Assembly: GCA_014905635.1 (NCBI GenBank)
Contig: CM026547.1
Span: 1,612,001-1,676,000 of the forward strand
Direction of reading: 5' to 3'
DNA length: 64,000 nucleotides
DNA from: Scenedesmus sp. PABB004
Lineage: Eukaryota
Part shown: piece after piece, positions 1-60,100 of the stretch
How the letters are laid out: every line of letters starts with the position of its first letter
Position numbering within the stretch: the first letter of the stretch is position 1
Notes under the pieces: model-generated
What the model saw: the letters and a program-made list of their open reading frames with translations, nothing else
Told to the model about the DNA's origin: nothing
Databases searched by the model: none
Program-made: the position numbers and the translations under genes

Positions 1-82
1 GCGTCGCGCGCCTCGCCCCTGGCCCCCGGCCCGCCCGCCCCGGCCGACGCGCCGCCCGCCCCGCGCGTGTGTGTGCTGCCAG

Positions 83-3000: not shown

Positions 3001-3625
3001 CCGGCTACGGGGCGCAGGACTACGGCAGCGGCAGGGGCGGCTCGCCCGGCGGCTGGCCCGGCGGCGGCGGCTGCGGCGGCGGGCCCGGCGGGCCCATGCC
3101 CGGCGCGCCGGGCGGCTACGGCGCGCCGCCCGGCGGCCAGCAGCCGTGGCAGCGCGTGCTCGGCCACCACCTGCCGCAGCACGGCGGCGGCGGTGGCTGG
3201 CAGGCGCCCGGCGGCGGCGCGCCGGCGGTGGTGCAGGTGCCGGTCGGCGGCTACGGCGGCTACGGCGCGCCCGCGCCGCTCGGCATGCAGCCGGGCGTGC
3301 GGCCGATGATGGCGGGCCAGTACGGCTGGGCGCCGCTGCCCGGCGGCTACGGCGGGGCGCCGCCCGGCCGCGGCGGAGGGTCGTTCTACGACTCCATGCG
3401 CGGCGGGGCGCCGCCGATGCAGGGGCCGCCGCCGATGCAGTACGGCGGGCAGCCCCAGGTGGTCATCGGCTACGGCGGCCTGCCGCCGATGGGCGGCGGC
3501 GGCCCGCAGTTCCAGCACCCCCACCAGCAGTTCCAGCAGCTGCAGCTGCAGCCGCAGGGCTACGTGGCGGCGCCAGGCGGCGGGCCCGCGCTCGCGCCGC
3601 GGCCCTGGATGCAGCCGGGCGCGGC

Positions 3626-3657
<32 letters not shown>

Positions 3658-3725
3658 CGCCGCCGGGCAATCGCTACGCGCCGCTCCAGCGCGACCCGCG
3701 CGCCGGGCGGGGGCGGGGCTACTGA
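83..3725 (+). CDS. XRN2: 5'-3' exoribonuclease, XRN2/Rat1 family (plant XRN3/XRN4-like); 3' part of a multi-exon gene whose 5' end lies outside the window
   Basis: Spliced exons give [118 protein letters not shown], which are hallmark XRN motifs. Stop at 3723-3725. There are three apparent 1-nt frameshifts in the poorly conserved insert (~410, ~875, ~1130). Confidence 0.93.
1555..1611. repeat. (CCAC)n microsatellite in an XRN intron
   Basis: Directly visible tetranucleotide run just before the acceptor at ~1616. Confidence 0.95.
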
Positions 3726-17713: not shown

Positions 17714-20700
17714 TCAGGCCATGACCTCCTTGGCGGCCTTGACCACGTTGTCGACGGTGATGCCAAACTTGGCGTACAGGATGTCGGCGGGCGCGGACGC
17801 GCCAAAGTCGTCGATGCCCACAAACTTGCCGCTGCTCGTGGTGTAGCGCTCCCAGCCAAAGCTGCTGCCCGCCTCGACCGCGACGCGCGCGGTCACGGCC
17901 TTGGGCAGCACGCTCTCCTTGTACTCGGCGCTCTGCTCGGCAAACAGCTCCCAGCAGGGCATGGACACCACGCGCACCTGCGGCGGCGGCCGGGCGGCGC
18001 GTGAGCGCGGCGCGCTGGTGCGGCGGGCGCCGGGCAGCGGGCGCCACGCGGCCCGCGCCCCCGCGCCGCCCCAGCCCGCGCGCGCCGCCCCGCGCCCCGC
18101 GCCGCCCCAGCCCGCGCCGCCCCAGCCCGCGCCGCGCGGCGCACCTTCTTGCCGTCGGCCTCGAGCTTCTTGGCCGCCTCGACGGCCATGGGCAGCTCGC
18201 TGCCGGTGCCGATGAGGATGACGTCGGGCGTGGCGTCGCCGCCGTGGATGACGTACGCGCCCTTCTCGGTGCCCTCCACGCTGCAGCCGGGCAGGTTGGG
18301 CATGCCCTGGCGCGAGAGCGCGATGGTCGTCGGGCGCTTGCGGTTGCCGACCGCGACCTTGTACGCGCCCGCGGTCTCGTTGCCGCCGCACGGGCGCATC
18401 ATGAGCATGTTGGGCATCGCGCGGAAGCTCGCGAGGTGCTCGATCGGCTGGTGCGTCGGGCCGTCCTCGCCGAGGCCGATGGAGTCGTGCGTCATCACGT
18501 ACAGCACGCCGACCTGCGCCCCGGCGCGGCGGCGGGCAGCACGCGGTCAGCGCGCGGCGCGGCGGCAGAGCGGGCCGCGCGGCGCGCGCGCGTGCGCGGC
18601 GGCAGGGCAGGCCACGCGGCGCGCGCGCGCGTGCGCGGCGCGGGGGCGGGCCGTCACCTCGCTGAGCGCGCTCATGCGCATGGCGGAGCGCATGTAGTCG
18701 GTGAAGATGTAGAACGTCGCGCAGTAGGGGATGAGCCCGCTGTTGTGCAGCGCGACGCCGTTGACGATCGCGCCCATCGCGTGCTCGCGCACGCCAAAGC
18801 TGCGCGGCGGGGCCGGGGCGGCGCGGGCGGCGTGGTGAGGGCGCGCGAAAGGCCTCGCAGCCCCAGCCGCCGCCGCCGCCCCAGCCCGCCGCCGCGCCGC
18901 GCCCGCCGCCGGCCCAGCCCGCTGCCGCGGCGCGCGCGCGGGCGCACCGCATGTTGCGCTCGGCGTAGCTGCCCTTCTGGAAGTCGCCAAACATCTTCAT
19001 CAGCGTGAGGTTGGAGGGCGCGAGGTCGGCGCTGCCGCCGATGAGGCCGGGCAGCACGGGCGCGAGCGCGTTGAGCATGATCTGGCTGTACTGCCGCGTC
19101 GCGAGGCCCTTGTCCTCGGGCGTGTAGCTCGGCAGCGCCTTCTCCCAGCCCGCGGGCAGCTTGCCGCTGCGCAGGGGGCGCGCGCGCGAGACAGGGGCGG
19201 GGTCAGCGGGGGCGCGCGAGGGCGCGAGGGCGGCAGCGCGCGCGGCGCGGCCGGGCGGCGCGGCCGGGCGGCGCGGCCGGGCGGCGCGGCCGGCGCGCGC
19301 GGCCGCCGTGCGCGCACCTGAGCAGGCCCTCCAGCTCCTCCGCCTCCTTGGGGTGCTTGGCCTTGTACGAGGCCATCGCGGCCTTCCACTCCTCCTCGGC
19401 CGCCGCGCCCTTGGTGACGGCGGAGCGCATGACGTCGTAGACCTCCTGGGGCACCTCAAACTCGCCGTACGGCCACTTGAGGTTCTCGCGCGTCGCCGCC
19501 GTCTCCTCGGGGCCCAGGGGCGCGCCGTGCACGTCGTGCGTGTCGGCCTTGTTGGGCGAGCCGTAGCCGATGAGGGTCGAGACCTTGATCAGGCTGGGCT
19601 TGTCGGTCACCGCCTTGGCGTTGGCGATGGCCTGCGCGCACGGGCGGCGGCGCGGCGGGGGCGCGCGTCGGCGGCGGCGCGGGCCAGCGGCGCGCGCACC
19701 CGCGCTGCCGCTGCTGCTGCGGCTCCGCGGCGCCGCGCCGCGTGCGGCGGGCGGCGGCGCTGGGCGGCGCTGGGCGCCGCGCGCGCGCGCGCGCCTTGCG
19801 CAGGCCGTCAAAGTCGGTGTTGCCGTCCTTGACGTGCTGCACGTGCCAGCCGAGCGCCTCGAAGCGCGCCGACACGTCCTCGGTGAAGCTGATCTCGGTG
19901 TGGCCGTCGATGGAGATGTTGTTGTCGTCGTACAGCGCGATGAGCTTGCCCAGGCCCCAGTGGCCCGCGAGGGAGCAGGCCTCGTTGGAGATGCCCTCCA
20001 TCATGCAGCCGTCGCCGAGGATGCAGTAGCTGCGCGGCGCGCGGGCGGGCGCGTGGGCGGGCGGGCGTGTGGGCGGGCGCGCGGGCGCGCGCGGCGCGCG
20101 CGGGCGGCAGGCGGCGCGGGCTGGCGGGGCGCTCAGGCGTGCGCGCGCGGGGCGCTGCCGCTGCCGCTGCCGCTGCCGCTGCCGCTGCCGCTGCCGCTGC
20201 CGCTGCCGCTGCCGCTGCCGCTGCCGCTGCCGCTGCCGCTGCCGCTGCCGCTGCCGCTGCCGCTGCCGCTGCCGCTGCCGCTGCCGCTGCTCCCCCCCTG
20301 CACGCGCCGCTGGCAGCCCCCCTGGCGCCGCAGCGCGCGCGCCCGCGACGGCCGCCGCGCCGGCCCCCGCCCACCCCCGTGGCGGCGCTCACGTGTAGTG
20401 GTCCACCACCTTGGCGTCCGGCTTGTTGAAGCGCGCCGCCAGGTGCGCCTCAGCGGCGGCGAGGCCGACGGCGTTGCAGATGCCCTGGCCGAGCGGGCCT
20501 GCGGCGCGGCGCGGCGCGCGCAGCGCGGCGGTCGGCGCGGCGGCGCGGCGGCGCGGCGGCGCGGCGGCGCGGCGGCGCGGCGGCGCGGCCGCCCCCCGCC
20601 GGCCGGCGCGCGGGGCGCGCAGGCGGTGCGCTCGTGGGGCCGTGCGCGCGGGCCCGGCGGCGGCTGCGGCGCGCACCGGTCGTGACCTCCACGCCGGTGG

Positions 20701-21351
20701 TGAGGAAGTTCTCGGGGTGGCCCGGCGTGCGAGAGTCCCACTGGCGGAAGGACTTGAGGTCGTCCATCTGCGCGCCGCGCGTCGGGGCGTCGCGGTGAGG
20801 CGCCGCGGCGCGCGGCGCGCGGCGCGCGCGGGCCGGGCGGGCGGGCGGATCACCTGCACGCTCTCGTAGCCGACGAGGTGCATAAGCGCGTACTGGAGCA
20901 TGGAGCCGTGGCCCGCGGAGAGCACGAAGCGGTCGCGGTTGAACCAGGCGGGGTTCTTGGGGTTGAAGGTCATGGCCTCGTTGAAGAGGACGTACGCCAT
21001 GGGCGCGGCGCCCATCGGCAGCCCCGGGTGGCCCGACTTGGCCTTGTTCACGCCGTCGATGGCCAGGAAGCGGATGGCGTTGACGCACTTCTCCACGGTC
21101 TCCTTGGACACCGGCGCCTGCACCGCCGCGGCGGCCCTGCGAGCAGCAGCGCGGCCGGGCGCCCGAATTCAGCCCCCCGGCGCGCCCATTGGGCCCCGCC
21201 GCGCGCCCACGGCCGCCGGCGACCCGCCCGGCACCCACCGGGGCACGCACGCACGGCGCGCGGCGCGCAGGGAGGGGCGGGCGGGCGCGGGCGCCGCGCG
21301 GGCGCTGGCGCCGGGCGCCCTCAGGCTGCGCTGCTGCATGGTGGCCTGCAT
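17714..21351 (-). CDS. TKL: Transketolase, plastid-targeted (multi-exon)
   Basis: Transit-peptide-like N-terminus, then [90 protein letters not shown]. Confidence 0.97.
20154..20290. repeat. (CTGCCG)n hexanucleotide microsatellite, ~22 units, in a transketolase intron
   Basis: Directly visible perfect run. Confidence 0.97.
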
Positions 21352-26224: not shown

Positions 26225-28418
26225 GGGGCACAGGGTTAAGGGGTTGGAGGGCGCGTTGCCGCGCCGGCCGCTCGGCTCCACGACCCCCTCACTGCCCTGC
26301 CCGCACACACTCAGCGCGCGCACACGCACCATGTGGCTGTAGCGCGGGTACAGGTACTGCACCACCGGCACGTCGGGCGCGAAGCGGCGCTGCTGCTCCG
26401 CGACGTCCTCGGGCGTGGACATGATGTCGATGGACCCTGGGCCACGCGGCGCCGCGCGCGGGAGGTCGGCGGCGGCGGGCGGGCGCGCAGACGGGCGGCC
26501 GCCGGGCGCGGGCGGCGCGGCGCAGCGCGCGGCGCAGCGCGCGCGCGGCGCGCGCGCACCGAGAAAGAAGGCCTGCGGCGCGGTGATGCGCGTGAGGTTG
26601 TACTCGGGCGGCACGGTGGCGCCGTAGGCGGCCATGTTGCAGCTCTCGTGGTAGCTGCGCGGCCAGGCCGCGCCGAGGATGAGGTTGGTGCAGTCGTTGC
26701 CGTAGTCATACTTCTGCAGCCGCAGCACGCCGTCGCGGTCCATCTGCGCCGCCGCACCCCCCGGCGGCGGCGGCGGCGCGCGTGGGCGCGCGGCGCCGAG
26801 GGGCGCGCGGCGCGGCGCCGCGCGACGCGGCCGCCCGCGCGCCGCGGGCGCGCGGGTGCCGGCGCGCCTGGCTCCAGTGCTCCAGGTTGCGCGTCGCCAC
26901 GGTGCTGGGCCAGGTGGTGCCGACGAGCAGGTAGTCGCTGGGGGGGACGAAGACGCTGGGGCCGTAGAACATGCCGTTGAGCTGCTGCGTGCACCACTCG
27001 TTGAACGTCGAGTTGTGCTTGCAGAAGGGCATCACAAAGGGCGAGAGGTCGCGGTTGGCCAGGAACTCGCCGAGCGGCGCGTTCTTCAGCCACTGCGGCG
27101 GTTCCCGGCGCGCGGCGGCGGCGCGGTCGGCGGCCGGCGGCCGCCGCCGGCGCGCGCGCTGCGCTGTGCTGCGCGGCGCGGTGGGCGGTGCGGGGCGCGT
27201 GGGGGGCCGCGCCTGGTCGGACTTGACCTTGGGCTGCGCCTTGAGGAAGGGCGCGCGTATGAACTCAATGAACGCGACGGGCCCGACGTGCAGCACGACG
27301 CTGACCTTGTCGTTGTACTCGGGCTTGTCCGAGAGCAGCATGTAGATGAGCGTGCAGCCCTGGCTGTGCCCCACGTACGCGAGCTTGGACGCGCCGCTCG
27401 TCTTGAGCGCGTAGTCGATCTGCGCGGGAATGTCCACGAGCGCGAGGTCGTCCATGGACCAGCGCCAGTATTTCTGGCCCCACTGGTTGAGGAAGACGTG
27501 CCCCCGGCTGTACGTGTTGCCGCGGCTGTTGGAGAGCCAGACGTCAAAGCCTGGCCCGCGGCGCGCCGGGGCGCGCGCAGCGCGGGGCGGCCGCCGTCGT
27601 GGAGCCCCGGCCGGCGGCGGCGGGCGGGCGGCCTGCGCACGCGCCCCGCGCGCGCGCCGCGCCCCCGCCGGCGCGCACCCGCGTCCGCGAGGATGTAGGC
27701 CATGCTCTCGTTGGCGTTGAGCAGCGTGAAGCTGTTGCTCGCGAGCGTCACGCCGTGCTGCAGCATGACCACGGGCTTGCGCCCGCGCTCCGTGTGCCGC
27801 GACGCGCCCGCGGGGATGCGGTACATGTTGAGGATGAAGCCGTCCACAGTCACGACCTTGTGGTTCTCAAGCGGGTACCCCGCGGCGGGGACGAGGTCTG
27901 CGGTGACGCAGCGCGGCGCGCAGTGGCGCGGTGGTGCGGTGGCGCAGTGCGGCGCGCGGTGCGGCCCGCGGCCGCGACGCCGAGCCCTGCCGGCTGTCTG
28001 CCAGCCCCCTGCCAGCCCTCTCTGCCAGCCCGCTCTGCCGCCGCGCGCGCTCGCGGCGCGCGCGCGCGCTCGCGCTGCGCGCACCCTCCATCTTGGCGGC
28101 CCAGCGCTCGCTGAACACGTCGATCGACGGCGCGTCCTTGCTCCCCAGGAACGGCAGGCTGGGGATGGGCGCGGGCCCGGCGCGGCCGAAGATGCCCTCG
28201 GGGATGATGTGGTCGCGCGGCTGCGCGGCGCCAGAGCCGGCGGCGCTGCCGCCGTCGTCGCCCGCGAGCGCGCGGCGCGGCGCGCGCAGCCCCGTCTCGG
28301 CCTGCAGCCGCTCCAGCAGCGCGGCCTGCGCGTCGGTCATCTCCACGGCGCCCGCCAGCGCCGCGCAGGCGCAGAGCAGGGCGAGGCCGAGGCCCGCCAG
28401 CCTGCTCGCGGCCCTCAT
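26105..28418 (-). CDS. Secreted/lysosomal acid triacylglycerol lipase (alpha/beta-hydrolase, LIPA-like)
   Basis: Signal peptide MRAASRLAGLGLALLCACAALA, GYPLENHKVVTVDGFILNMYRIP, LQHG, YILADAG|FDVWLSNSRGNTYS, catalytic YVGHSQG, YDYG, PPEYNL, YSHM|DFVW. Confidence 0.93.
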
Positions 28419-29055
28419 CTGCCTACGCTGCACCAGGCGCGCGCTGCAGGCACTGAAGGGCGCGTCCGACTCGCGCTGTCTCCCGCGACCGGCCTGGCAC
28501 GCCGCTGCGTGCCGATCGCCCGCGGCGCGCCGCGGCCAGCCGAGCCGAGCGCGGGAAGTGGGCCGTCCTGGCCCTGTGCGTCGGCGCGGGGTCCTCTCTG
28601 CTCGCGACACCCTCGTCTGTGCACCAACAGTGCTAGTGAGCAGCTGCGCGGGCCCGAGCGCGCTCCGCGGTCGGCAGGCCCGCGCCCGCCGGCCGGCGGG
28701 CTGCCCGCCCGGCTGCTGCTCGTGCAGCGCAGCGCTCACCACCGGAGGTCCCAGAGCCCAAGGTGCATGCGTCGAGAAGCTGCGAGCAGCTCGGCTGCCC
28801 GCTGCGGCGCGCCGGCCGCTGCCGTGCGAGCGCGCTGCGCCGGCGCTGGCCTGCGCTGCGTTCACAGGCCGCGCGAAGAGCGCCTGCCTGGCCTCCGTTG
28901 GGTTACAGAGTTGATTTCGCCAGCTGCTCGACCGCCCAGAAGAAAGCGCATCCCAGCCGCCGCCCCCCGTTTCGGGAGGACACGCGCGCTGCAATCCCAC
29001 CCGCACCCAAGCCATGCCCCTCGCCCCGCGTGCCCGCGCGCGCGGCACCCCCGCG

Positions 29056-29543
29056 CTACAGCAGCGCCGCGCCCGACGGCGGCTGCAGCGCGGGCACGTG
29101 CAGCGCGCCCGCGGGGCCCGGCTTGGGCGCGGGCGCGGCGCCGCCGCCGCTGGGCGCGGCGCCGAGGTGGTGGTGCGCCGGGCGCAGCAGCCCCTGGCGC
29201 AGCGCGGGGTCGGACGTGCTGCGCCGCCGCTGCATCCAGGCCGACGCGCGCAGCCGCGCGAGCAGGCGCAGCGCGAGCGTGCTGCCGAGCTCCGCGAGCC
29301 CCGCGGCCGCGGCGTTGACCGCCATGATGGCCAGCAGGCCCGCGCGGAACGCCGCCGGCAGGCCGTCGGGCGGGCCCCGCCCGACGAGCGTCTGCACGCG
29401 CGTCGTGAACGCGTCGACGCTGAACAGGCTGTAGACCAGGAACGCCACCTGGGCCACCATCGCCGCGAGCAGGCCCCAGTTGGTCCACAGCGGCTGCCTG
29501 CGCGCGCGTGGCGGCGGGGAGGCGGAGGGCTCGGGCGCGGCGC

Positions 29544-29579
<36 letters not shown>

Positions 29580-32500
29580 GGGCGCCGCCCCGGCGCGGCG
29601 CGCTGCGGCCCACACGCGGCGCTGTGCCGCACCGGTGGGGGTATCCCTTGTTGAACACGGCGGCGAGGATGACAAACTGTGAGAGGCAGACGAGGTAGAT
29701 GACGCTCGTCTCGGGCGCGACGTACGTGCGCAGGTCGGACGACCCCACGGTCGGGACGTACCAGGGAATGCGGTACAGCGCACGCAGCGCCACCAGCTGC
29801 GCGCCGGGCGGGCGCGGCCGGGCGCGGGCGGGCGTGGGCGCGGGGCGCGGGCGGGCGTGGGCGCGGGGCGCGGGCGGGCACAGCGGGCACAGCGCGCGCG
29901 GCGCGGCGGCGCGCAGCGCGCGCGGCGGCGGCGCGCCTGGAACACGATGACGACCGCGATCTGCAGCAGCAGGGAGAGCACGAGCGGCAGCGAGAGCACG
30001 CGGCCGACGGGCTTGTCGCGCGCGAGCGCCGCGCGCGGGCGCGTGTAGCCCATGAGCGCGGCGAGGATGGTGATGTAGAAGAGGTCCTGTATGAGGTACT
30101 GGTAGTTGCCCATCTGCAGCGCGTGCGTGTACATGAGGTTGGTCGCAAACGCCTGCGCCATCGCGTAGCCGACGATGAACTGGAAGATCTGGTACGTCGC
30201 GAGCAGCGCGCAGCGCCCCTCCGCCACGACCGCGATCATGCTTGTGATGCTCTGCTGCCGGCTCGTCATCGGCGCCGCGACGCTCGCCTCGGCCTCGCAC
30301 AGGCTCACGCCGACGTGCGCCGCCTTGAGCGCGCCGCAGTCGTTCGCGCCGTCGCCGCAGAAGCCGACGTGCAGCCCGAGGTGCGGGCAGCCGTGCGGCG
30401 CGCCCTGCAGGCCGTGGCCGAGCAGCTCCATGAGGTCGCGCTTGTTGTCGGGCGACATGCGCGCAAACACGGCGCCGCGGCGCAGCAGCGGCTGCAGCAG
30501 CTCGTGGTCGTACGGCGGGACCAGCAGCGCGTCAAAGCCCTTGCCCGTCACCGCGCACTCGAGGTCGCCCATCATCACCTGGCGCGCGGGCGGCGACGGC
30601 GCGCCGCGCGCGCAGGTGGGCGGCCGCGCCGCCGCGCGACGCGGGCGAGCGCGGCGCGCGCGTGGGCGCCGCCCGGCCCGGCGCGGCCCCGCCGCGGCGC
30701 GCCGCACCTGGGGCAGCACCGTGGCGCGCGAGACGGTGTGGTTGACGCTGCCGTCGGCGTAGAGCACGCTCAGCGCGACGCCGCTCGCCGCGCGGGCGCC
30801 CGCGTGCGGCGCGTCCATGAGCAGCACGGGCCGCCCCGGCGGCAGGATGTTGCACTGGTGCGCCACCGAGACCGCGGTGCGCACGTGGTCGCCGGTGACC
30901 ATGGCGGTGCGGATCTGCGCCTTCTGCAGCGCGTCGATCGCGCCCGCCGTGTCGGCGCGGAGCGGGTTGGCGAGCACGGCGAGGCCGACGAGCTCCAGCG
31001 GCACCGCGCCCTCGAGCTGCGCCTGGCTGTACCGCCCCAGCGCGCCGTCGGGGAGCAGGCCCGGCGTGACGAAGCCGCGCGCGAGCGCGAGCACGCGCAG
31101 GCCCTCGCGCGTGTACTCGCCCAGCACGGCGTCAAAGTCGGGCGGCACCGAGCTCGGCGCCACGAGGCCCTTGATCATCTCGGGGCTGCCCTTGACGTAC
31201 AGCACGTGGCTCGCGCCGCCGCCGCCGCCGAGCGACGCGCGCGACGCGTGCGCGTGCGCGTGCACGCCACCGCCCGGCGCGCCGCCGCCCGAGAAGCTCA
31301 GCAGGTCGGCAACGCCGCCCGCCGGCGCGCTGGCGCTGCCCTGCAGCGCGGCGCCCGCGAGGCCGGCGCCCGGCAGCTCCACGACCACCAGGTTGCGCTG
31401 CAACGCGCTGCTGAACTCGAAGCGCCGCACGATCGCGGCGCCGCCGCCGGGCTGGCCTGGCGGGTGCACGCGCGCGAGCGTCTGCATCGCGCCGCCGCTG
31501 CTGCTGCTGCGCACCGCCGCCGCCGCCGCCTGCGGGTGCACGTGGTCCTCGCAGTCGATCATCGACCAGCCGCTCGCGGCAAAGAGCTTTTGGTCCAGCG
31601 GGTCGCCGACGAGCGTGTCGCCCAGCCACGCGAGGCCGTGGCAGCTCGCCAGCAGCTGCGGCACGTCGGGCGGCAGCTGCGCCATGTCGGTGCCCGACGG
31701 CTCAAAGCGCCCGTTGTTCACGGGCGCGATGCTCTGCAGCTCCAGGCCCTGCACCGTCAGCGTGCCTGCGGCGGCGGCGGCGCCAGCGGCGCGCGCGCGC
31801 GCGTGACGCGGGCGCGCCGGCGCAACGCCGCGGGCCGACGATGCGGCGGCGCTCGCCCGGGGCCACCACCGCCGCGGCTGCCGCCGCCGCGGCCGCCGCG
31901 CGCGCGCACCGGTCTTGTCGAAGCACACGATGTCCAGCTGGCCCGCGAGCGTGATGGTGTGGGGGCCGGTGACGTAGATGCCGACGCGGCGCAGCCGGCC
32001 GATGCTGAACACGGTCGCGATGGTGAGGCACGCCGGCAGCGCGGGCGGCACGGCGATGGTGATCATGTCAAAGAACCGCACCGCGATGCGCCCCGGCTGC
32101 GCGCCGATGTGCGCCAGCACGACCGCCGCCCACACAAAGATGCCCATGCACGCGACCTGGCGGCGGCGGCGCCGGGAAGGCGCGCGCGTCGGCGGGCGCG
32201 CTCGTCGGCGGGTGCGGCGCGGGGCGGCGCGGCGCGGCGGCCAGCGGCGGCCGCGGGCGCGCACGAGCATGACGGCGATGAACTTGAGGCTGTCGCTGAT
32301 GAACGCCTCGCTGGTGCCGCGCGGGAAGAGGATGGAGCGCAGCAGCTGGCCCTTGGCGCTGTAGAAGCGCGTGCGCACGACCATGGCCAGCGACGCGCCG
32401 CCCGCGCTCGCGGCGGGGCTGAGCCCCAGCCCCGCGAACGCCTCGGCGCCGCCGCCGCCGGGCGCGCGCGCCTGCGCGACCTGCGTGCCGCCGTAGAGCG

Positions 32501-33588
32501 TGCAGGCGGCGTGCTTGTCGGGGCTGTACGCTGCGCCCTCCACGCTGGGGCTGTACGCCACCTTGCGCACGGGCACAGACTCGCCTGCCGGCGGCGGCGG
32601 GCGCGGCGGCGGCTGAGCGGCCGCGGCGCGCGAGCGGCGCCGGGCTGCGATGCCGCTCTGGCAGCGGTCGCCGCCGCGGCCGCATGCGCGCGCGGGGCGC
32701 ACCCGTGAGCATGTTTTCGTCCACGATGCACTCGCCGCTCAGCAGCACCGCGTCGGCTGGCAATGTGCCCGGCACGACCGCGATGATGTCCCCTGGCACC
32801 AGGCTCTGCGACGGCAGCGTCCGGAACGCGCCCCCGCGCAGCACCTCCACCTGCGCGGGCGGCGGCGGCGGGCGTCGCCCCCCGCCCCAGCGCCGCGCCT
32901 GCCGCGGGGCGCCGCGCCGCGGGTGCGTGTGCCGCGGGTGCGCGTGCCGTGCTCGCGCACCATGCACGAGAAGTGCGCGATGTCTGCGAGGCGGCGCATG
33001 TTTTGGTGCGTCTCGACCGCGCTGGTGAGGATTGAGAACCAGGTGATGACAAAGATGCAGACCGCGTACGTGTAGTACGCGTCCCCGGCGACCCACACGA
33101 TGATGCTAAAGTACTGGAACACGTAAAAGGGGTGCCACATCTCGTCGCCCACGATCGCCGCGACGCTCTTGACCGGGATGGCCATCTCGTTCGCGCCGTA
33201 GCGCTGCTGCCGGTCGCCCAGCGCCCACGCGCGCTCCTCCAGGCACCTGCGGCGGCGCGGCGCGCTGCGCGCTGCGCGCTGCGCGCTGCGCGCTGCGCGC
33301 TGCGCACGGCTGCTGCGCGCCGCGCCGCCCCCCAGGGACGCGCGCCTGGGGTCCTGCGTCGCCGCGAGCTGCGTCGCGCTGGCCTGCAGCTGCGCGTTGA
33401 AGGTCTTGGGCACGTCCGGGACCGGCAGGAATGTGTCGGCCGCCTCCACATAAAAGTAGCGCCCGCAGCGGTACTCCAGCAGCCGCTCCTGCACCGGGAA
33501 GCCCTGCGCACACGGGCGCGCGGCGGCGGCGCGTGCGTCGGGCGGGCGCGGGCCGCCGCTGCTGCTGCTGCTGCTGCTGCTGGGGCCG

Positions 33589-33626
<38 letters not shown>

Positions 33627-34942
33627 GCAAGCTGCTGCTGCGCCGTCTGCTGCTGCACCAGGTGCTGCGCCGCCGCCGCTGCTCACCGCCTGCGCCAGCA
33701 GGTCCGGGTGCTGCGCCGGCGAGAGGTAAGGGTGCGACGCCGCGGGCGCCGGCTGCAGCACCAGCACCTCGTGCAGGCTGACGCGGCCGTCGTGCAGCTG
33801 CGGTGCGCGGCGTGGGGTGGCGGGTCGGCGCGGCGGCGCGCGCGGCCAGCCGCCGCGGCCTGGCGGCGCCCGCGTCCGCGCCCGCGCCTGAGCGGCGGCG
33901 CCCCCCGCGCGCTCACCGTGACGCGCACAAACTTGGCCTGCTTCAGCGGGCAGCGGCTGAGCCGCAGCGCGGTGCGTACGCGCAGCGACCACTTGGCGAC
34001 CAGGAAGAGCACCCCGAAGCTGCACACGCCGAGCACCGCGAACAGGAGCTGCTTGTGCCATGGCGAGTCGAAGCCCTCGAAGGACAGGATCTCCTGCGGG
34101 GCGAACCAGGGGAGAGGGTGAGGGGGCGCGGGCGGGGGTTGGCGCCGGCGCTGCTGCGCCAACCGTCGCGCCGCCGCGGGCTGGCGGCTGCCCCGGCGCT
34201 CGAGGCGCTGCGCCCGGGCGACGTCGTGCGACGTCCTGGTCCGTCCCCGCGGCCGGTCGCGGCCCCACGGCCCCGGGCGGCGGCGCTGGCGGGCTGGCGC
34301 CGCGATGGCGCGCTACCTTGTCGGCGCCGCTGAACGCGTCCGGCGCCGGCCGCGCCGGGCGGCCGGGCCGGGCCTTGACGCTGCTGCTGAGCGGCTGCTC
34401 GAGCTCGAACGCGGCCACGGGCGCGGCGCCCTTGCCCGAGCCGCGCTCGAGCTCGTCCTCGAGCACGAATTGGCTGCCCATGGCGCTGACGCGCGCGTCA
34501 GGCGCGTGCTCAGGGGCCGCGCCCGCGCGCTGCGGCCACGCTGGCGCGCTGCCCGGTCGACGACGCTGCTGGCCGCGCCATGCGAGCTGGTGCGCGGGCC
34601 GGGACTGCTCGGGCGCTGGACTGACGCACACACAGCCGGGTGCAGCAGCTGACCGCGCCGCGCCGCGCGCCCTGAGCCCCGCCGCCGCGCGCCAGTCGCG
34701 CGACCGGCGCGCGCGCAGCCGGGCCCGTGCACGGCAGCGCCCGCCGCGCCGCCGCCGCGCACCTTGCTGTGAGCCTCCTCGTCACCGCCGGGACCGCTGG
34801 GGAGGAGGAACGCGATGGGCACGTGCTGGTGGTGGGACGCGCCGGCGGCGCCGGCGTCGCCCTCGAGGGAGGTCCGGCGCGAAGACCCGCCGCTCAGCAG
34901 GGGCTCGTGAAGCAGCCCACCACCTCCGCCACCGGCTCCCAT
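29056..34942 (-). CDS. P5B-type ATPase (ATP13A2/Ypk9-like, putative polyamine transporter)
   Basis: HPFYVFQYFS, LVPGD, VDENMLT|GES, TIAVPPALPA (P5B motif), CFDKTG|TLT, VGDPLD, KGSPE, MVTGD, FARMSPDNK, FCGDGANDCGALKAAHVGVSL. The start could alternatively be 34481 (MGSQF). Confidence 0.92.
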
Positions 34943-41369: not shown

Positions 41370-42070
41370 ATGGCCCGCCTCGCCGTGGTCGCCCTGGCCC
41401 TCTTCGGCCTCCTGGCCGTCGCCAGCGCAGCAGGTGAGGGCCTCTCCTGCGTCGCGCGCGCCGCGCGCTGCGCGCATCGCCGCGTTCCGCCAGCCCGCGC
41501 GCCAGCGCCCGGGGACTGCGCGGGCTGCGCCCGCGCGGGATGCTTGTGCGCAACACATCGATCTGGGCTGGCACCCGACAGTTGCCCGCGCTGCCGAGCG
41601 CGGGCAACTGCCGAGCGCCGCGACGCCCTTGGCGCCGCCTGACTGCCGCCGCCTGGCCGCCTGCGGCCGCCCGGCTTGACCCTCTGCCTGCCCCCGCCCT
41701 GCCCGCCGCGCCACGCCACGCAGACTCGCAAACCTCGCGCAAGATGCTGGGCTGGGACTGGCCGACCGCCCGCGTGACCACCCCCATCGGCAAGGTCAAC
41801 GTGCGCCCGTACAGCTGGAACGTGCAGAACCTGGTCGGCGGCAACCTCCTGTTCCCCAACTGGTGGGTGTCCGGCTTCCCCGAGGCCACCGGTGGCAGCC
41901 GCCGCCTCCAGGGCTGGGACTGGCCGACCGCCCGCGTGACCACCCCCATCGGCAAGGTCAACGTGCGCCCGTACAGCTGGAACGTGCAGAACCTGGTCGG
42001 CGGCAACCTCCTGGTCCCCAACTGGTGGGTGTCCGGCTTCCCGGAGGCCACCGGCGGCTCCAAGCACTAA
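41370..42070 (+). CDS. Secreted repeat-peptide precursor A (136 aa): signal peptide plus two Trp-rich 50-aa cores
   Basis: Exon 1 41370-41433 encodes MARLAVVALALFGLLAVASAA, intron 41434-41723 is GT..AG, and exon 2 encodes DSQTSRKML-[GWDWPTARVTTPIGKVNVRPYSWNVQNLVGGNLLFPNWWVSGFPEATGGS]-RRLQ-[same core, F>V]-KH*. The unit is 162 bp. TGTAA lies at 42136-42140. Confidence 0.88.
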
Positions 42071-42633: not shown

Positions 42634-43088
42634 CCCGCCGCGCCGCCAGCGCAGCGCAGCCCGCGCCACCAGCCCACGACAAGCAGCCGCGGTCTGCGCT
42701 CAGCCGCGGTCGCGGGGACGGGCAGCGCTGCTGCTGCTCGCCCGCCTGCAAGAGGGTGTGTGCTGGCGCCTCGGCGCAGGTGCGACGCCAGCGGCGGCGG
42801 CCGCCGCGGCCGCGGCGCCAGGCCCAGGGGTGTCGCCGCCGGGTGCTGAGCGCTGGGCGGGGGCAGCGCGATCGGGCAGCCGCGCTCGCGCTGAGTGTTA
42901 CTTGGCGGTCATTTGAGTTGGCCGCGGCGCGGCCCGCTCCCAGGCATGCTGCCGCAGCACCGCCGGCAGCGGCGCGCACACGGCGCAGGCTCGCAGCGTG
43001 CACCTGCCTCCCCGCACCGGGATCCTGCGGCGCGGGTCAACTGCTTGCTGGCTGCCGCCCGGCGTCCGGGGCGCACGCTGCGGACGCG
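42634..43088 (+). repeat. ~455-bp direct repeat, copy 1 (copy 2 at 47162-47616)
   Basis: Constant 4528-bp offset (ORFs 42895/47423 and 42998/47526 start identically). I saw only two substitutions by eye. Confidence 0.93.
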
Positions 43089-44151
43089 CGGCACGCCGCG
43101 CCGCCGACCGCCCTCCCCGCCGGGCGTCCGCCGGCGCGGCGCCGGCCGCGCGCCGGCTGCAGCAGCCTGCTGTGCGGATGGTGGTGGGTCTGCCGTCACT
43201 GCCCGCGCACCAGCCCAGCCGCGCACGGCTGCGGGCGCCGCCGGGCGGCCGCCGCGCGTGCCCTGTCGCCGGCCCGCCGGGCGCGCCGCGCCGCCGCTTG
43301 CTGGGCGGCCGGCGAAGCGTGCAGCGCTCACCCGGCTGCCTGATGCCGCTGAGGGCCAGGACGAAGCCCGCCCCCGCCGCAGTTGGCGGCCGCCGCCGCG
43401 CCGGCAGCGCAGCGCTGGCGACGGCCGGCGCTGGCGCCCGCGGCCGCCGCGAGCACGCAGTCGATGGAGAGGCCCTTAAAGGAGAGCCGGGCCGCTGGCC
43501 AGGCGCCGCGCAGGGCCAGGCGCGCGCGGGGCGGGCGCCAAAGCAGCGCGCCCGCCAGCGGTCGCACCTCCTCGGGGGCCTCGGAGGCCCCGGTATTTAG
43601 TTCAGACTAATATCGAGCTGCCCCGCCGGCGCTTCAGGCGCGTGGATCGTTGGTCAACCGATCGCCTGGTGGACTTCCGGCGCCCCGCGCGCCATATGCC
43701 CGCCCCCCGCCCTCCGCGGCCACTCTGCGCCCCTCCTCCGCGCTGCAGCCACATTCACGGCGCTCCCTGGCCAGCCACGCCTGCTGACTCCGGCCAGCGC
43801 TGTGCTGTGCGCTGCTGCGGGCCCGGCGCGCCCTCCCCATCCCGGTGAGCGCGCCAGACCGCGCGCGCGATTGTCAATTGCACCTCCACGCAGCGCCGCG
43901 GCGCGCGGCGCGACAGCGCGCTCGGGGCGGGCGGCGCATCTCGCCGATGCGCGCACCTCCCTGGCCGGGCGCTGCGGCGTGCCCAGCAGCCCGCCGGCAC
44001 GCCGATCGTGACCTCCAATAAGCCACCAAATTGACGCGCTCACTCGCGCCCCGCGCCGCCCTGCCCCGCGCCCGCCACGCCCGACGCCCGTCATGCGCCA
44101 GGTCGCCGACCCCTCGCCACGCCCGCCGCGACCGGCAACCGACGCCGCGCA

Positions 44152-46203
44152 ATGAAGACGTCAAAGGTCATCGCGGCCCTGCTCATCGCCGGCCTGGCTG
44201 TGTCCGCGGCTGCCTCGCACGGTGGGTGGCGCCGCCGCGGCAGGGCGGCCGGGCGCCCCGCAACCAGCCAGCGCGCGCCGCGAGCCGCGAGCGCCGGTGG
44301 GGGCCGGGGGCGGCAGGAGAGTCGCAGGCGCGGTTCAGCTGAACGATAGCAGCTCGGGCAGCGCAGGGCGCGTGCGTTGCGGTGGCAGACCAGCACGCTG
44401 GCCGTGGGCGCGCGGCGCACAGCGAGCGCCACCGCTCCACCGCCGCCAGTTCTGGTGAAACTCCGACTCACATTCCCCTGCCGCCCTGCTGCCTGCCCCT
44501 GCTGCTTGCCCCCGCTTGCAGGCCGTGAGCTGAGCCAGGCCGCTGCTGCGAAGGACGCCAAGGCCGCCGACGCCAAGGCCGCCGACGCCGCGGAGGAGGC
44601 GCCCGCCAACCCCTACGGCGACGGCCTGCCGACCGTGACCGTGTCTGGCCCCTCGAGTATCCCCAGCTTTGCCGCCCCCACCTTCAAGTACGCGTACAAG
44701 GACGGCGTGGGCGCGTTCCAGGCCTGGAACGGTGGCATCGAGCTCCCCAAGGTCATCGACCTCGGCGGCGTGCGCGTGACCCGCCCCGGCCTGCGCGGCC
44801 GCCGCCTGAGCCAGGCTGCTGCGGCTGCCAAGGACGCCAAGGCCGCTGACGCCAAGGCCGCTGACGCCGAGGAGGAGGCGCCCGCCAACCCCTACGGCGA
44901 TGGCCTGCCGACCGTGACCGTGTCCGGCCCCTCGAGCATCCCCAGCTTTGCCGCCCCCACCTTCAAGTACGCGTACAAGGACGGCGTGGGCGCGTTCCAG
45001 GCCTGGAACGGCGGCATCGAGCTCCCCAAGGTCATCGACCTCGGCGGCGTGCGCGTGACCCGCCCCGGCCTGCGCGGCCGCCGCCTGAGCCAGGCTGCTG
45101 CGGCTGCCAAGGACGCCAAGGCCGCTGACGCCAAGGCCGCTGACGCCGAGGAGGAGGCGCCCGCCAACCCCTACGGCGATGGCCTGCCGACCGTGACCGT
45201 GTCCGGCCCCTCGAGCATCCCCAGCTTTGCCGCCCCCACCTTCAAGTACGCGTACAAGGACGGCGTGGGCGCGTTCCAGGCCTGGAACGGCGGCATCGAG
45301 CTCCCCAAGGTCATCGACCTCGGCGGCGTGCGCGTGACCCGCCCCGGCCTGCGCGGCCGCCGCCTGAGCCAGGCTGCTGCGGCTGCCAAGGACGCCAAGG
45401 CCGCTGACGCCAAGGCCGCTGACGCCGAGGAGGAGGCGCCCGCCAACCCCTACGGCGATGGCCTGCCGACCGTGACCGTGTCCGGCCCCTCGAGCATCCC
45501 CAGCTTTGCCGCCCCCACCTTCAAGTACGCGTACAAGGACGGCGTGGGCGCGTTCCAGGCCTGGAACGGCGGCATCGAGCTCCCCAAGGTCATCGACCTC
45601 GGCGGCGTGCGCGTGACCCGCCCCGGCCTGCGCGGCCGCCGCCTGAGCCAGGCTGCTGCGGCTGCCAAGGACGCCAAGGCCGCTGACGCCAAGGCCGCTG
45701 ACGCCGAGGAGGAGGCGCCCGCCAACCCCTACGGCGATGGCCTGCCGACCGTGACCGTGTCCGGCCCCTCGAGCATCCCCAGCTTTGCCGCCCCCACCTT
45801 CAAGTACGCGTACAAGGACGGCGTGGGCGCGTTCCAGGCCTGGAACGGCGGCATCGAGCTCCCCAAGGTCATCGACCTCGGCGGCGTGCGCGTGACCCGC
45901 CCCGGCCTGCGCGGCCGCCGCCTGAGCCAGGCTGCTGCGGCTGCCAAGGACGCCAAGGCCGCTGACGCCAAGGCCGCTGACGCCGAGGAGGAGGCGCCCG
46001 CCAACCCCTACGGCGATGGCCTGCCGACCGTGACCGTGTCCGGCCCCTCGAGCATCCCCAGCTTTGCCGCCCCCACCTTCAAGTACGCGTACAAGGACGG
46101 CGTGGGCGCGTTCCAGGCCTGGAACGGCGGCATCGAGCTCCCCAAGGTCATCGACCTCGGCGGCGTGCGCGTGACCCGCCCCGGCCTGCGCGGCAAGCAC
46201 TAG
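44152..46203 (+). CDS. Secreted repeat-peptide precursor B (583 aa): signal peptide plus six ~93-aa units
   Basis: Exon 1 44152-44221 encodes MKTSKVIAALLIAGLAVSAAASH, intron 44222-44521, and exon 2 begins GRELSQ followed by units RRLSQAAAAAKDAKAADAKAADAEEEAPANPYGDGLPTVTVSGPSSIPSFAAPTFKYAYKDGVGAFQAWNGGIELPKVIDLGGVRVTRPGLRG. It ends GKH*. Third positions are strongly C/G-biased. Confidence 0.9.
44524..46194 (+). repeat. Coding tandem array, six units of 279 bp (first unit one codon shorter)
   Basis: Antisense ORFs recur at 44613, 44892, 45171, 45450, 45729 and 46008 (period 279). Confidence 0.97.
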
Positions 46204-47161: not shown

Positions 47162-47616
47162 CCCGCCGCGCCGCCAGCGCAGCGCAGCCCGCGCCACCAG
47201 CCCACGACAAGCAGCCGCGGTCTGCGCTCAGCCGCGGTCGCGGGGACGGGCAGCGCTGCTGCTGCTCGCCCGCCTGCAAGAGCGTGTGTGCTGGCGCCTC
47301 GGCGCAGGTGCGACGCCAGCGGCGGCGGCCGCCGCGGCCGCGGCGCCAGGCCCAGGGGTGTCGCCGCCGGGTGCTGAGCGCTGGGCGGGGGCAGCGCGAT
47401 CGGGCAGCCGCGCTCGCGCTGAGTGTTACTTGGCGGTCATTTGAGTTGGCCGCGGCGCGGCCCGCTCCCAGGCATGCTGCCGCAGCACCGCCGGCAGCGG
47501 CGCGCACACGGCGCAGGCTCGCAGCGTGCACCTGCCTCCCCGCACCGGGATCCTGCGGCGCGGGTCAACTGCTTGCTGGCTGCCGCCCGGCGTCGGGGGC
47601 GCACGCTGCGGACGCG
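47162..47616 (+). repeat. ~455-bp direct repeat, copy 2
   Basis: Matches 42634-43088 and ends about 195 bp upstream of the SCAPER ATG. Confidence 0.93.
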
Positions 47617-47810
47617 TGCCGCGCCGCCGATCGCCCGCGAGAGACCGGCATCGCGTGCCGCCGATCGGCGGCGCCCGCCTCCCGCCAGGCAGCGCGGACT
47701 TGCCATCGGGGGCGCCAAGGCGCAGCCCTCCACATGCGCGGGCCCCTGGCCCAGGGCACCCCGCGGGCGCAACCAGGGCCCGCGTAGCCCGGCATGGCCG
47801 ACGCGGCGGC

Positions 47811-57100: not shown

Positions 57101-60100
57101 GCGCGAGGTGCATCGTGCCGAGCGCCGCGGCGCCGCCGCCGTCGTCGTCGCCGGCCGCCGCGGCAAAGGTGACGGCGGTGACGCCACTGCTCGCGTCGAG
57201 GCAGGCGCCGTCGCCGAGGGAGATGAGGTCGAAGCCCTGCAGGTCGTTGGTGTCGATGACGACGCCCGACCCCACGCGCACGCCGAGCGCGCGGTACCAC
57301 CAGCACAGCAGCTCGGTGCGGCGGATGGCGGGCAGGAAGCTGGCTCGCGCGCCCTGCGGGGGGGGGGGGGGGGGCGCGGCGCGCGGCGCGGTGCGCAGCG
57401 CGCGTCAGCGAGGCGGCGGGAGCGGGGCGGCGCAGGCGGGGCGGCGCGCGCGGCGGGGGCGGCGGCAGCTCACGAGCGTGAGGACGTTGACGAGCCAGTG
57501 CCGCAGGAAGGCGCCGCCCCAGAGCGGCGCGGTGCCGGCCCTGTACCGCCCCACGAGCAGCCACTTGCCGCCGATGGTCCACGCCGCAAACAGCGCCATG
57601 CTCGCGAGGTCAAACGCGGGCAGCAGCGCGAGCGCGGCCCAGCCGAGCCGCGCCGTTGCGGCAAAAAAGCCGACAAACGGCGCCGCCGTGGTCACGGCCG
57701 ACAGGCCGCCCAGCAGCACGAGCGCCGCGACCTGCATGGCCGTGGCCCAGGCGACCGAGGGCGCCGCCGCGCCGGCGCCGCGCGGCGGCGGCGCGGCGCC
57801 GTCCTGCTTGGCGCCGCCGCCGCGGCCGCCGCCAGCCGCCGCGGCGGCCTTGCCGGGGCCGGGCAGCAGCCCGCCGCGCGCGCCGCCGCCGGGCGCGCCG
57901 GGCGCGACCCCGGCGCCTGCGCCGCGCAGCGCCGAGGCGGCCGCGGGGTCGGCGCCACCGCTGGCAAAGGGGCTGGAGAAGCCCGGCAGCTGCGGCGCGG
58001 CAGCGTCGAGCGCCGCCACGCCGGGCGGGCCGAGGAAGAGCCGCGCGTGCGGCAGGGCCTCGCCGCGCGAGGAGACCTCGCCGCTGGCGCTCGACGCGGC
58101 GCTCGCGGCGGGCGCGTGCGCCGCGCCGCCGGCGCCCTTGGCAAACGCCGCAAACGCCGCGCCCGCCGCGGCAAAGGCGGCCTGGTAGGCCGCGACCGCC
58201 GCGTGCGTGGGCGGCGCGCCGGTCGCGCGCGGGCCGGCGCCGCGCAGCGCGTCGTCGCCGTCGGCCCGCGCGGCGGGCGTGCCGCCGCCGAGCGCGGCCG
58301 AGACGGCCGCCGCGACGTTGGCCGCCACGCTCGCGGCGGCGGCCGAGAAGCCGTCCGTGAGGCTGCTGCCGCCGCTGGGCGCGACGGACCACGCCGAAAT
58401 GCTGCCGCCGGCGGACGGCAGCTCCCAGGCCGACGCGCTGACGCTGGAGCCGGCCCCGAGCGGCGCCTGCAGGCTGCCCGCGCTGCCGGCCCGGATGAAG
58501 CTGCCGGCGCAGCTGGGCACCGCAAAGCTGCCGGCGCCGCTGGGGCCGAAGGGGAGCGGCCCCAGGACCGACTCCTTGGAGGCCAGCGCCTTGGGCGGCG
58601 CGCCGCCGGCGGCGGCCACCGCGGCGGCAAAGGCCGCCAGCGTCGGCGCCGAGTAGATGAGCAGGCCGCTCATGGCCGGCAGCGCCAGGCCCGCGCGCAG
58701 CTGGCTGTTGACGCGGCCGGCAATCAGGCTGTTGCCGCCGAGGGCGAAAAAGTCTGACTCGGGCCCCAGCGCGCCGACCTCGACGCCCAGCGCCTCGGCC
58801 CAGGCGGCCGCGACGAGGGCCTGCAGCCGGTCGGTCGCGCATGCCGCCCCCAGGGGCTTGGCGCCGGCCAGCGCCGCTGGCGGGGACGCCGGCGGGTGCG
58901 CCTCGGCGGGGCTGGTGATGCTGGAGCTGCTGCCCGAGCGCGCGCTGAGCGCCGAGCCGCCGGCGGCGGCCACCGCGGCGGCAAAGGCTGCCAGCGTCGG
59001 CGCAGAGTAGATGAGCAGGCCGCTCATGGCTGGCAGCGCCAGGCCCGCGCGCAGCTGGCTGTTGACGCGGCCGGCAATCAGGCTGTTGCCGCCGAGGGCA
59101 AAAAAGTCTGACTCAGGCCCCAGCGCGCCGACCTCGACGCCCAGCGCCTCGGCCCAGGCGGCCGCGACGAAGGCCTGCAGCGGGTCGGCCACGCACGCCG
59201 GCGCCAGGGGCTCGGGCGAGGGGCTGCTGCCCTGGCTGCTGGCCTCCTCGCCCGCCGGCGCCGCCACGGCAGGCAGCGCGCGGCCGGCGGCGCGGCCGCC
59301 GGCGGGCCCAGCCGGCGCCGGCGCCGGCGCGGCGGCGGGTCGCGGCGGGCGCACGCCGTCGCGCGCAAAGTCGGGCGGCGGGAGCGCCTTTCGGTTGACC
59401 TTCTCGCTGGGGAGCAGGGGCAGCGCGTCGAGCAGGACCACCGCAGTGGGTATCATGTAGTCTGGCAGCGCGCCCGCGAGGCCGGCGACGAGGCCGCCGC
59501 GGTCGAGCGCCGCGGGGCTGACCCACGCGGCGAGCTGGTCCTGCCCGGTCGTGGGGTTGGCCGCGAGCGCGCACGCGACCTGCGCCACGCCCGGGAGCGC
59601 GCCCAGCACCGCCTCGACCTCCTGCGGCGGGGGCCGCCGCGGAGCGGGCGGGGGGTCGGGCCGGGCGCGCGCCGCGCGCGCGCGCGCCGTTGCGAGCTGC
59701 CGCACGCTGCCACGGGGCTGCCGCGGGGCTGCGCGCTGCCGCGCCGCGCGCCGCACGCCGCGCCGCGTCGCTGGCGCACCTGGAGCTCGATGCGCAGGCC
59801 GCGCAGCTTGACCTGGTGGTCGACGCGGCCGAGGAACTCGAGCACGCCGTCGCCGCCGGGCAGCCAGCGCACGGCGTCGCCGGTGCGGTACATGACGTGC
59901 GTGTGGCTGGCGGGGCCCTCCGCGAAGGGGTTGGGCACAAAGGTGGTCGCGTTGAGCTCGGGGCGCTTGAGGTAGCCGCCCGCGACGCTGACGCCGCTGA
60001 TGAAGAGCTGCCCGGGCACGCCGCGCGGCACCGGACGCAGCGACGCGTCGAGCACGTAGAGGCGCGCGTTGTGGATGGGCCGGCCGATGGGGATGGTCGC

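Follow-up and report, generated by a model that had tools for sequence, protein, structure and literature searches.

The gene considered here, gene B, lies at positions 44152 to 46203 of a 64,000-nucleotide stretch of Scenedesmus sp. PABB004 (assembly GCA_014905635.1, contig CM026547.1, positions 1,612,001 to 1,676,000; this stretch is referred to below as the window), and the closest described systems are secretory precursors opened by subtilases of the site-1 protease (S1P) type and precursors whose products end in an amide. RxLx or RxxL is described as the recognition motif of S1P, SBT6.1 and SBT3.5, with cuts at AARRLR/S, INRRIL/A and TGRRLM/G among those given in the cited passages (PMC13082318), and the consensus quoted for arenavirus substrates of S1P is R-(R/K/H)-L-(A/L/S/T/F) (PMC2685025). 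In Chlamydomonas, the product of Cre14.g628800 is reported to have a catalytic core most like that of human SKI-1/S1P (PMC6313938). Protein amidation also has a precedent in this alga (PMC9351486), where amidated products are described that derive from –GRRR and –GR tails, and from another tail from which Arg and His have to be removed (PMC6919629). Among green algae, chlorophytes are stated in the part of a review cited here to possess PAM or PHM (PMC6529398). What is described of green-algal peptide signalling so far comes from a small number of large proproteins of Chlamydomonas, in which one C-terminus is amidated. Below, we describe gene B, its relatives and the junction between its repeat units, and we consider how the encoded chain may be processed. 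The gene B family is real and conserved, and appears to be undescribed; its general architecture is known, and its junction is unusual and sharply defined.

Gene B and its six units

Gene B has two exons on the forward strand. Positions here and below are those of the window.

44152 to 44221, forward strand: exon 1, start codon and signal peptide (sequence read, spliced model)
44222 to 44521, forward strand: intron, phase 1, GT...AG, donor GTGGGT from 44222 (predicted from donor and acceptor strings)
44522 to 46203, forward strand: exon 2, six tandem units, Lys-His tail and TAG stop (sequence, translation)
44524 to 44799, forward strand: unit 1, 92 amino acids, RELSQ, a spacer one Ala shorter, and the core (translation, unit comparison)
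44800 to 46194, forward strand: units 2 to 6, five units of 279 bp with identical DNA, starting at 44800, 45079, 45358, 45637 and 45916
46195 to 46203, forward strand: Lys-His tail and TAG stop after unit 6 (translation)

Exon 1 reads MKTSK, a hydrophobic stretch and SAAASH, and its last base opens a Gly codon; the signal peptide was called by eye from its basic start, hydrophobic core and small residues. The initial annotation of this DNA had begun the element at 44524; this is where the first complete codon of exon 2 starts, whereas the exon that encodes the signal peptide lies upstream. The spliced model gives a protein of 583 amino acids. An antisense open reading frame (ORF) is also open opposite exon 2, which is usual at the GC content of the window (0.74–0.82). 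The forward frame of 44524–46203, in which the GC content by codon position is 0.71/0.58/0.91, is taken as the coding frame because the relatives described below match it, with E-values down to 8.5e-74.

Translation of this frame gives six units of 92 or 93 amino acids, and Tandem Repeats Finder reports a period of 279 with 6.0 copies and 99% matches at 44530–46194. Units 2–6, of 93 residues each, consist of RRLSQ, AAAAAKDAKAADAKAADAEEEAPA (a 24-residue spacer of Ala, Lys, Asp and Glu) and a 64-residue core ending RPGLRG; unit 1 consists of RELSQ, AAAAKDAKAADAKAADAAEEAPA and the core. Every one of the six units is closed by a Gly that precedes basic residues, RR after the internal units and KH after the last. 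The layout proposed initially (six units, a spacer, a core of about 64 residues ending RPGLR-G, then RR or KH) is thus retained, except that the first unit starts with RELSQ and not with RRLSQ. The segment from Gln to Gly of each unit has 89 residues, with a computed mass of 8,959 Da and an isoelectric point (pI) of 5.2; the core alone (64 residues) is Cys-free, with computed values of 6,621 Da and pI 9.3. Gene B is, as predicted from these features, a secreted protein of six near-identical copies of a small domain.

There are no DNA differences among units 2–6. Between units 1 and 2 there are nine synonymous and two non-synonymous changes and one indel of an Ala codon; the non-synonymous ones put E in place of R at residue 2 of the junction, and A in place of E within the spacer. 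Because the five 279-bp units are identical, and unit 1 has 11 substitutions and the indel, the pattern indicates a putative very recent expansion or homogenisation that stopped short of unit 1. The copy number of six is that of the assembly, in which five identical 279-bp units could be miscounted. Within the core, units 1 and 2 differ by four synonymous changes and by no non-synonymous change and this, together with an identity of approximately 70–76% to the relatives, points to purifying selection on the core.

Relatives and the core domain

A phmmer search with one unit of gene B against 1.84 billion representatives gave nine proteins at E ≤ 0.001, seven of which are clear relatives. The other two, P0007 and P0008, are long repeat proteins (E 1.2e-08 and 3.0e-06, with 14 and eight matching stretches) and were dropped by judgement as compositional or repeat-summed matches. 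A profile search extended the set to 24 proteins which, with cluster members, makes 26 relatives. Those with names are hypothetical proteins of Scenedesmus sp. NREL 46B-D3 (four units) and Tetradesmus obliquus (three units), both Scenedesmaceae (Sphaeropleales). The available sequences, some of which are fragments, carry one to four core motifs each; P0005, P0020 and P0022 have a single unit. Across the family, the units within a protein differ little or not at all. Because, in addition, copy number varies and single-unit genes exist, the unit is considered to be the functional entity. Two further searches, one for full-length homologues of similar size and one with a profile for longer proteins, gave no matches; as both are word-based, this is weak evidence.

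The ends of the relatives are database predictions that are not confirmed at the DNA level, and searches for their loci in metagenome DNA gave 129 (A3) and 201 (P0011) pattern matches, none of which was confirmed. In P0003 and P0019, the predicted protein continues beyond RKLAQ into unrelated sequence that starts with Val; this looks like intron read-through right after the junction Gln codon, and in some species each unit may therefore be its own exon. Among the publications searched, none has the core motifs or the two locus tags, and there was no matching peptide in the supplements of PMC12638912. The number in the locus tag of the Scenedesmus homologue is listed in a co-expression module table, built from the 7,028 genes that met the expression filter of that study (PMC7955037), which would mean that the homologue is transcribed if this number is its Joint Genome Institute (JGI) protein id, as is assumed here.

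The spacer is missing from all 26 relatives, in which the core directly follows the junction Gln. For this reason, the spacer appears to be a lineage-specific, low-complexity insertion; it holds a 15-nucleotide duplication, in which DAKAA occurs twice.

The core is predicted to be strand-rich. In Pfam, the only entry over its cut-off for gene B is DUF6725 (28.9 versus 27 bits), a score that is summed over six partial matches of 17 residues, no single one of which passes; for P0012 the same entry scores 18.2 bits, below the cut-off. A sequence profile search of the PDB with the core gave no match at E ≤ 1, and Foldseek gave none against the PDB at E ≤ 0.001 with a model of mean predicted local distance difference test (pLDDT) score 62.6. 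The best Z in a wide structural comparison with VIA-align was 2.2, and the best score for a gene B unit in the ESM Atlas, 0.79 to bacterial hypothetical clusters, is below the usable level. A missing fold match is not evidence of a new fold.

The junction and the unit ends

R-x-L-x-Q is the most conserved element of the family. It is present in all 34 junction instances available from the relatives, 13 of them first sites after the signal peptide and 21 internal. The internal instances are RKLQQ (eight), RKLAQ (seven), RRLQQ (two), RRLSQ (two), RKLKQ (one) and RKLNQ (one), and each relative that has an internal junction (14/14), like gene B, has Gly followed by R-[K/R]-L-x-Q there. The first site reads R-[E/D]-L-x-Q in 12 of the 13 relatives in which the region is seen, and in gene B (hence 13/14); the sole exception, RRLQQ, belongs to a distant member. 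Position 2 of the motif is therefore basic at all internal junctions and acidic at 13 of 14 first sites. Paired basic residues do not flank every copy in gene B itself, where RR is found at the five internal junctions and RE before unit 1. An interpretation of RRLS as a kinase site was ruled out, since in the relatives Q, A, K or N stands in place of the Ser.

The single-unit proteins are informative as to where a mature product might begin. P0020 and P0022 keep R-[E/D]-L-x-Q, although they have neither an upstream unit nor a basic pair. In P0005, the motif is absent and the signal peptide runs straight into the conserved Gln (...VVCA/QAPKV). Because the signal peptide of P0005 abuts this Gln, the mature N-terminus is placed at the junction Gln.

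A Gly stands at the end of every unit across the family. In 19 of 26 relatives, the protein ends with this Gly and a short tail, namely GH (six), GKH (six), GRKH (two), GRKMK (two) or GRRRAQ (three); tails of the GH/GKH/GRKH type, to which the GKH of gene B belongs, account for 14 of the 26. Four of the remaining relatives end at the Gly itself and three run on or are cut, two of them probably reading into an intron. The suggestion in the initial annotation that units end in Gly and basic residues can thus be extended from gene B to its relatives. In two distant subfamilies, the last unit ends in GRKMK or GRRRAQ, which resemble the internal tails GRKL[KQ]/Q and GRRRLS/Q. These ends mimic the tail that would be left on an internal unit after a cut before Gln, and hence count in favour of a cut at that position.

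Proposed processing of the gene B chain

From how gene B is built, from its repeat and relatives, and from the conservation of junctions and tails, we infer that gene B may encode a polyprotein cut at R-x-L-x/Q by a subtilase resembling S1P, a proposal to which we assign a probability of about one half. The signal peptide would be removed first, and the chain would then be cut in the secretory pathway at every [G/A]-R-x-L-x/Q junction, the site being set by Arg at –4 and Leu at –2, as for S1P or SBT6.1-type subtilases. This would release six near-identical products beginning with Gln, which could cyclise to pyroglutamate; each would comprise the spacer segment and the 64-residue core (89 residues, approximately 9.0 kDa). 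The tails, RRLS on internal products and KH on the last, would probably be trimmed by carboxypeptidases to the invariant Gly, which, once exposed, could be amidated. The candidate roles of such products, which we do not rank, are an extracellular signal, a defence peptide and a wall-associated self-assembling peptide.

The cut is proposed to be defined by Arg –4 and Leu –2, rather than by a basic pair, because the motif is kept at the first site, where there is no basic pair. A reservation attached to the initial annotation, that cleavage after RRL rather than RR would preclude simple amidation, has in this way become the central point. A cut before Gln would give six products that all start alike, in agreement with P0005. 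Since the predicted N- and C-termini correspond to exact masses, a junction so conserved and precisely placed offers a direct and cheap test of site choice by algal secretory convertases.

Several observations weigh against this proposal. Gln, Lys or Asn at P1 and the invariant Gln at P1' are not among the S1P preferences given in the parts of the literature cited here. A cut before Gln leaves G-R-R-L-S, and Ser, Leu and two Arg would have to be removed to reach the Gly, which is not a classical route. The motif at the first site is also preceded by Gly (9/14) or Ala (4/14), with nothing there to amidate, and the Gly may accordingly be part of the recognition motif and not an amide donor. That position 2 is basic at internal junctions and acidic at the first site may indicate a function of the basic pair as such; charge constraints beside the signal peptide are an equally good explanation. 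Duplication of units would hand on the same junction in an uncleaved multi-domain protein as well. Finally, the two AlphaFold2 models, with mean pLDDT 55.2 and 62.6 (the latter with 22 aligned sequences), are of low confidence.

The neighbouring gene A and the genomic surroundings

A second gene, gene A, lies 2.1 kb upstream of gene B and is predicted to encode a small secreted protein (135 amino acids) with Trp-rich units. Gene A and a direct repeat that follows both genes have the following positions.

41370 to 41433, forward strand: gene A exon 1, signal peptide (sequence, spliced model)
41724 to 42069, forward strand: gene A exon 2, two units of 54 amino acids with the core GWDW...EATGGS (sequence, repeat finder)
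42634 to 43099, no strand assigned: copy 1 of a 466-bp direct repeat, 565 nucleotides after the gene A stop (blastn)
47162 to 47627, no strand assigned: copy 2 of the direct repeat, 959 nucleotides after the gene B stop (blastn)

Gene A is built in the same way as gene B, with a signal-peptide exon, a phase-1 intron and a repeat exon, and the cores of the two genes are unrelated. SRKML precedes unit 1, RRLQ stands between the units and GGSKH ends the protein before the stop. Arg is thus found at –4 and Met or Leu at –2 before both unit starts (RKML/GWDW and RRLQ/GWDW), such that Arg –4 and Leu –2 (Met in gene A) are kept before unit starts in two genes with unrelated cores. Because these adjacent genes of different cargo share the junction rule and the KH end, they suggest a processing grammar of wider use, by which algal genomes could be searched for further secreted peptides. 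A bolder extension is a new green-algal precursor system in which an S1P-type R-x-L-x/Q site replaces the dibasic site and yields mini-proteins with a pyroglutamate start and an amide end, from at least two unrelated cargo families (A and B); we regard this as speculative and improbable. A Ser stands between the Gly and RR or KH in gene A, which counts against a simple amidation logic common to both genes.

Gene A has no Pfam match above the cut-off and no usable match in the ESM Atlas. When the window was scanned in six frames for a Gly/basic/His end before a stop, only genes A and B and one unrelated minus-strand ORF were found. The sequence TGTAA occurs 67 nucleotides past the gene A stop (42136), and was not found after gene B. 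The two copies of the direct repeat are 98.9% identical over 466 nucleotides (blastn), and may have arisen by segmental duplication of the 3' flank or belong to a dispersed element. A further tandem repeat, at 58602–59336, has a period of 354, with 2.1 copies and 84% matches.

The DNA of the window is nuclear and eukaryotic. Of its ORFs, 24 candidates were scanned; fragments among them match an XRN exonuclease, transketolase, a PCI-domain protein, a P5-type ATPase and TFIIA, and none of the 24 matched PAM, a subtilase or a carboxypeptidase. The exon fragments of housekeeping genes include those of transketolase (17896–21168, minus strand), the P5-type ATPase (27870–34312, minus strand) and the XRN-type exonuclease (2–3722, plus strand).

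Alternative explanations

The alternative that survives best is that the gene B product is not processed and remains a multi-domain repeat protein that is secreted or bound to the wall, in which RRLSQ and the Ala-rich, helix-prone segment would be a linker and the KH tail would have no role in processing. We consider it improbable, but a serious competitor. Identical domains in tandem are frequent among structural proteins of the extracellular space, Ala-rich low-complexity insertions are to be expected at 74–82% GC, and duplication of the units would pass on the junction motifs; the spacer is predicted as a helix (residues 7–24) in the first AlphaFold2 model, albeit with low confidence. It leaves unexplained, however, why R-[E/D]-L-x-Q follows the signal peptide in single-unit genes, why the signal peptide of P0005 ends at the Gln, why basic tails follow the Gly, and why the unrelated gene A shows the same spacing of Arg –4 and Leu –2 and the same KH end.

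The model put forward in the initial annotation amounts, when spelled out, to classical prohormone processing, in which a Kex2-like or prohormone convertase would cut after RR, a carboxypeptidase of the B type would remove RR or KH, and PAM would then give ...Pro-Gly-Leu-Arg-amide, with LSQ and the spacer trimmed by a dipeptidyl aminopeptidase. The invariable Gly followed by R-[K/R] at internal junctions, the Gly-plus-tail ends of 19 of the 26 relatives and the basic position 2 at internal junctions, acidic at 13 of 14 first sites, speak for this model, and PAM or PHM is reported from chlorophyte green algae (PMC6529398, in the section cited). Nevertheless, the model is unlikely. First sites, including those of the single-unit genes, keep R, L and Q without a basic pair; if the cut were after RR, the N-termini of the first unit and of the other five would differ; and the Ser of gene A means that the logic shared by the two genes is not Gly-basic-basic. 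Among the publications listed, none links peptidylglycine with a Sphaeropleales genus name. Amidation of the unit ends as such is a tentative proposal, with the balance of probability well on the other side.

Trimming of the spacer, as assumed in that model, is no mechanism of the family and, judged from the sequence, would fail in gene B, since the spacer is absent from the relatives (26/26) and its register breaks down. Counted from Gln, its dipeptides are QA, AA and AA and then KD, such that the X-Ala/X-Pro register fails at the fourth dipeptide, and counted from Leu or Ser even the first dipeptide is out of register. This bears out the warning, already given with the model, that the spacer is only partly in X-Ala register.

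A cut after Leu (R-x-L/x-Q) by an aspartic protease of the endoplasmic reticulum or Golgi, as for the PEXEL or TEXEL motifs of apicomplexan export, is very improbable: the letters of R-x-L-x-Q do fit the PEXEL motif (RxLxE/Q/D), but repeated internal sites are foreign to that system, which to our knowledge is known only from apicomplexans, and P0005 starts at Gln and not one residue earlier.

Comparison with known systems

The proposal that gene B is cut at R-x-L-x/Q can be set against three groups of described precursors. If, instead, its products are uncleaved wall domains, gene B would be an ordinary lineage-specific repeat protein.

Fungal repeat proteins processed by KEX2, such as alpha-factor and the Rep1 repellents of Ustilago, are described as having at least three identical motifs between KR, RR or KK, in variable copy number, with many copies made per transcript (PMC6339444). 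Gene B, with six repeats that cover nearly the whole protein and five RR junctions, fits the definition given there (at least three motifs, KR/RR/KK, more than 15% of the protein), but only formally, the class being defined for fungi. The fungal proteins belong to another kingdom and have no sequence relation to gene B, which has R-x-L-x-Q instead of a bare basic pair and no in-register XA/XP run of the STE13 type.

Classical amidated multi-copy precursors and the amidated proproteins of Chlamydomonas (proGATI Cre03.g204500, Cre12.g487700 and Cre17.g722300) share with gene B a signal peptide, repeats, and Gly-basic ends of the copies and of the C-terminus. The work cited documents, in a green alga, the amidation of substrates with C-terminal G(K/R)n and Arg/His tails (PMC6919629). 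The units of the gene B family are, by contrast, of the size of a folded domain (a core of 58–64 residues), and the first site has no basic pair; nor did the Chlamydomonas precursors show any sequence relation to gene B in the phmmer search of 1.84 billion representatives.

The substrates of S1P, SBT6.1 and SBT3.5 (RALF23, CLEL6/GLV1 and PROSCOOP12) are likewise secretory precursors, cut after R-x-L-x or R-x-x-L (PMC13082318, in the passages cited), and the S1P-type cuts AARRLR/S, INRRIL/A and TGRRLM/G of that source resemble RGRRLS/Q in gene B and GGSRRLQ/G in gene A. Both genes (RELS/Q and RRLS/Q in gene B, RKML/G and RRLQ/G in gene A) would have Arg at P4 and a hydrophobic residue at P2 if the cut is placed as proposed above, partly from P0005. 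The difference is that the described substrates free one C-terminal peptide from an N-terminal prodomain, whereas in the gene B family the site stands between up to six identical units of 58–89 residues, is always followed by Gln at P1' and is found in a chlorophycean alga. If the S1P motif is indeed used, with pyroglutamate and amide ends, these would resemble neuropeptide precursors more closely than any other multi-copy precursors known from Viridiplantae, and would imply that Sphaeropleales use peptides as extracellular signals.

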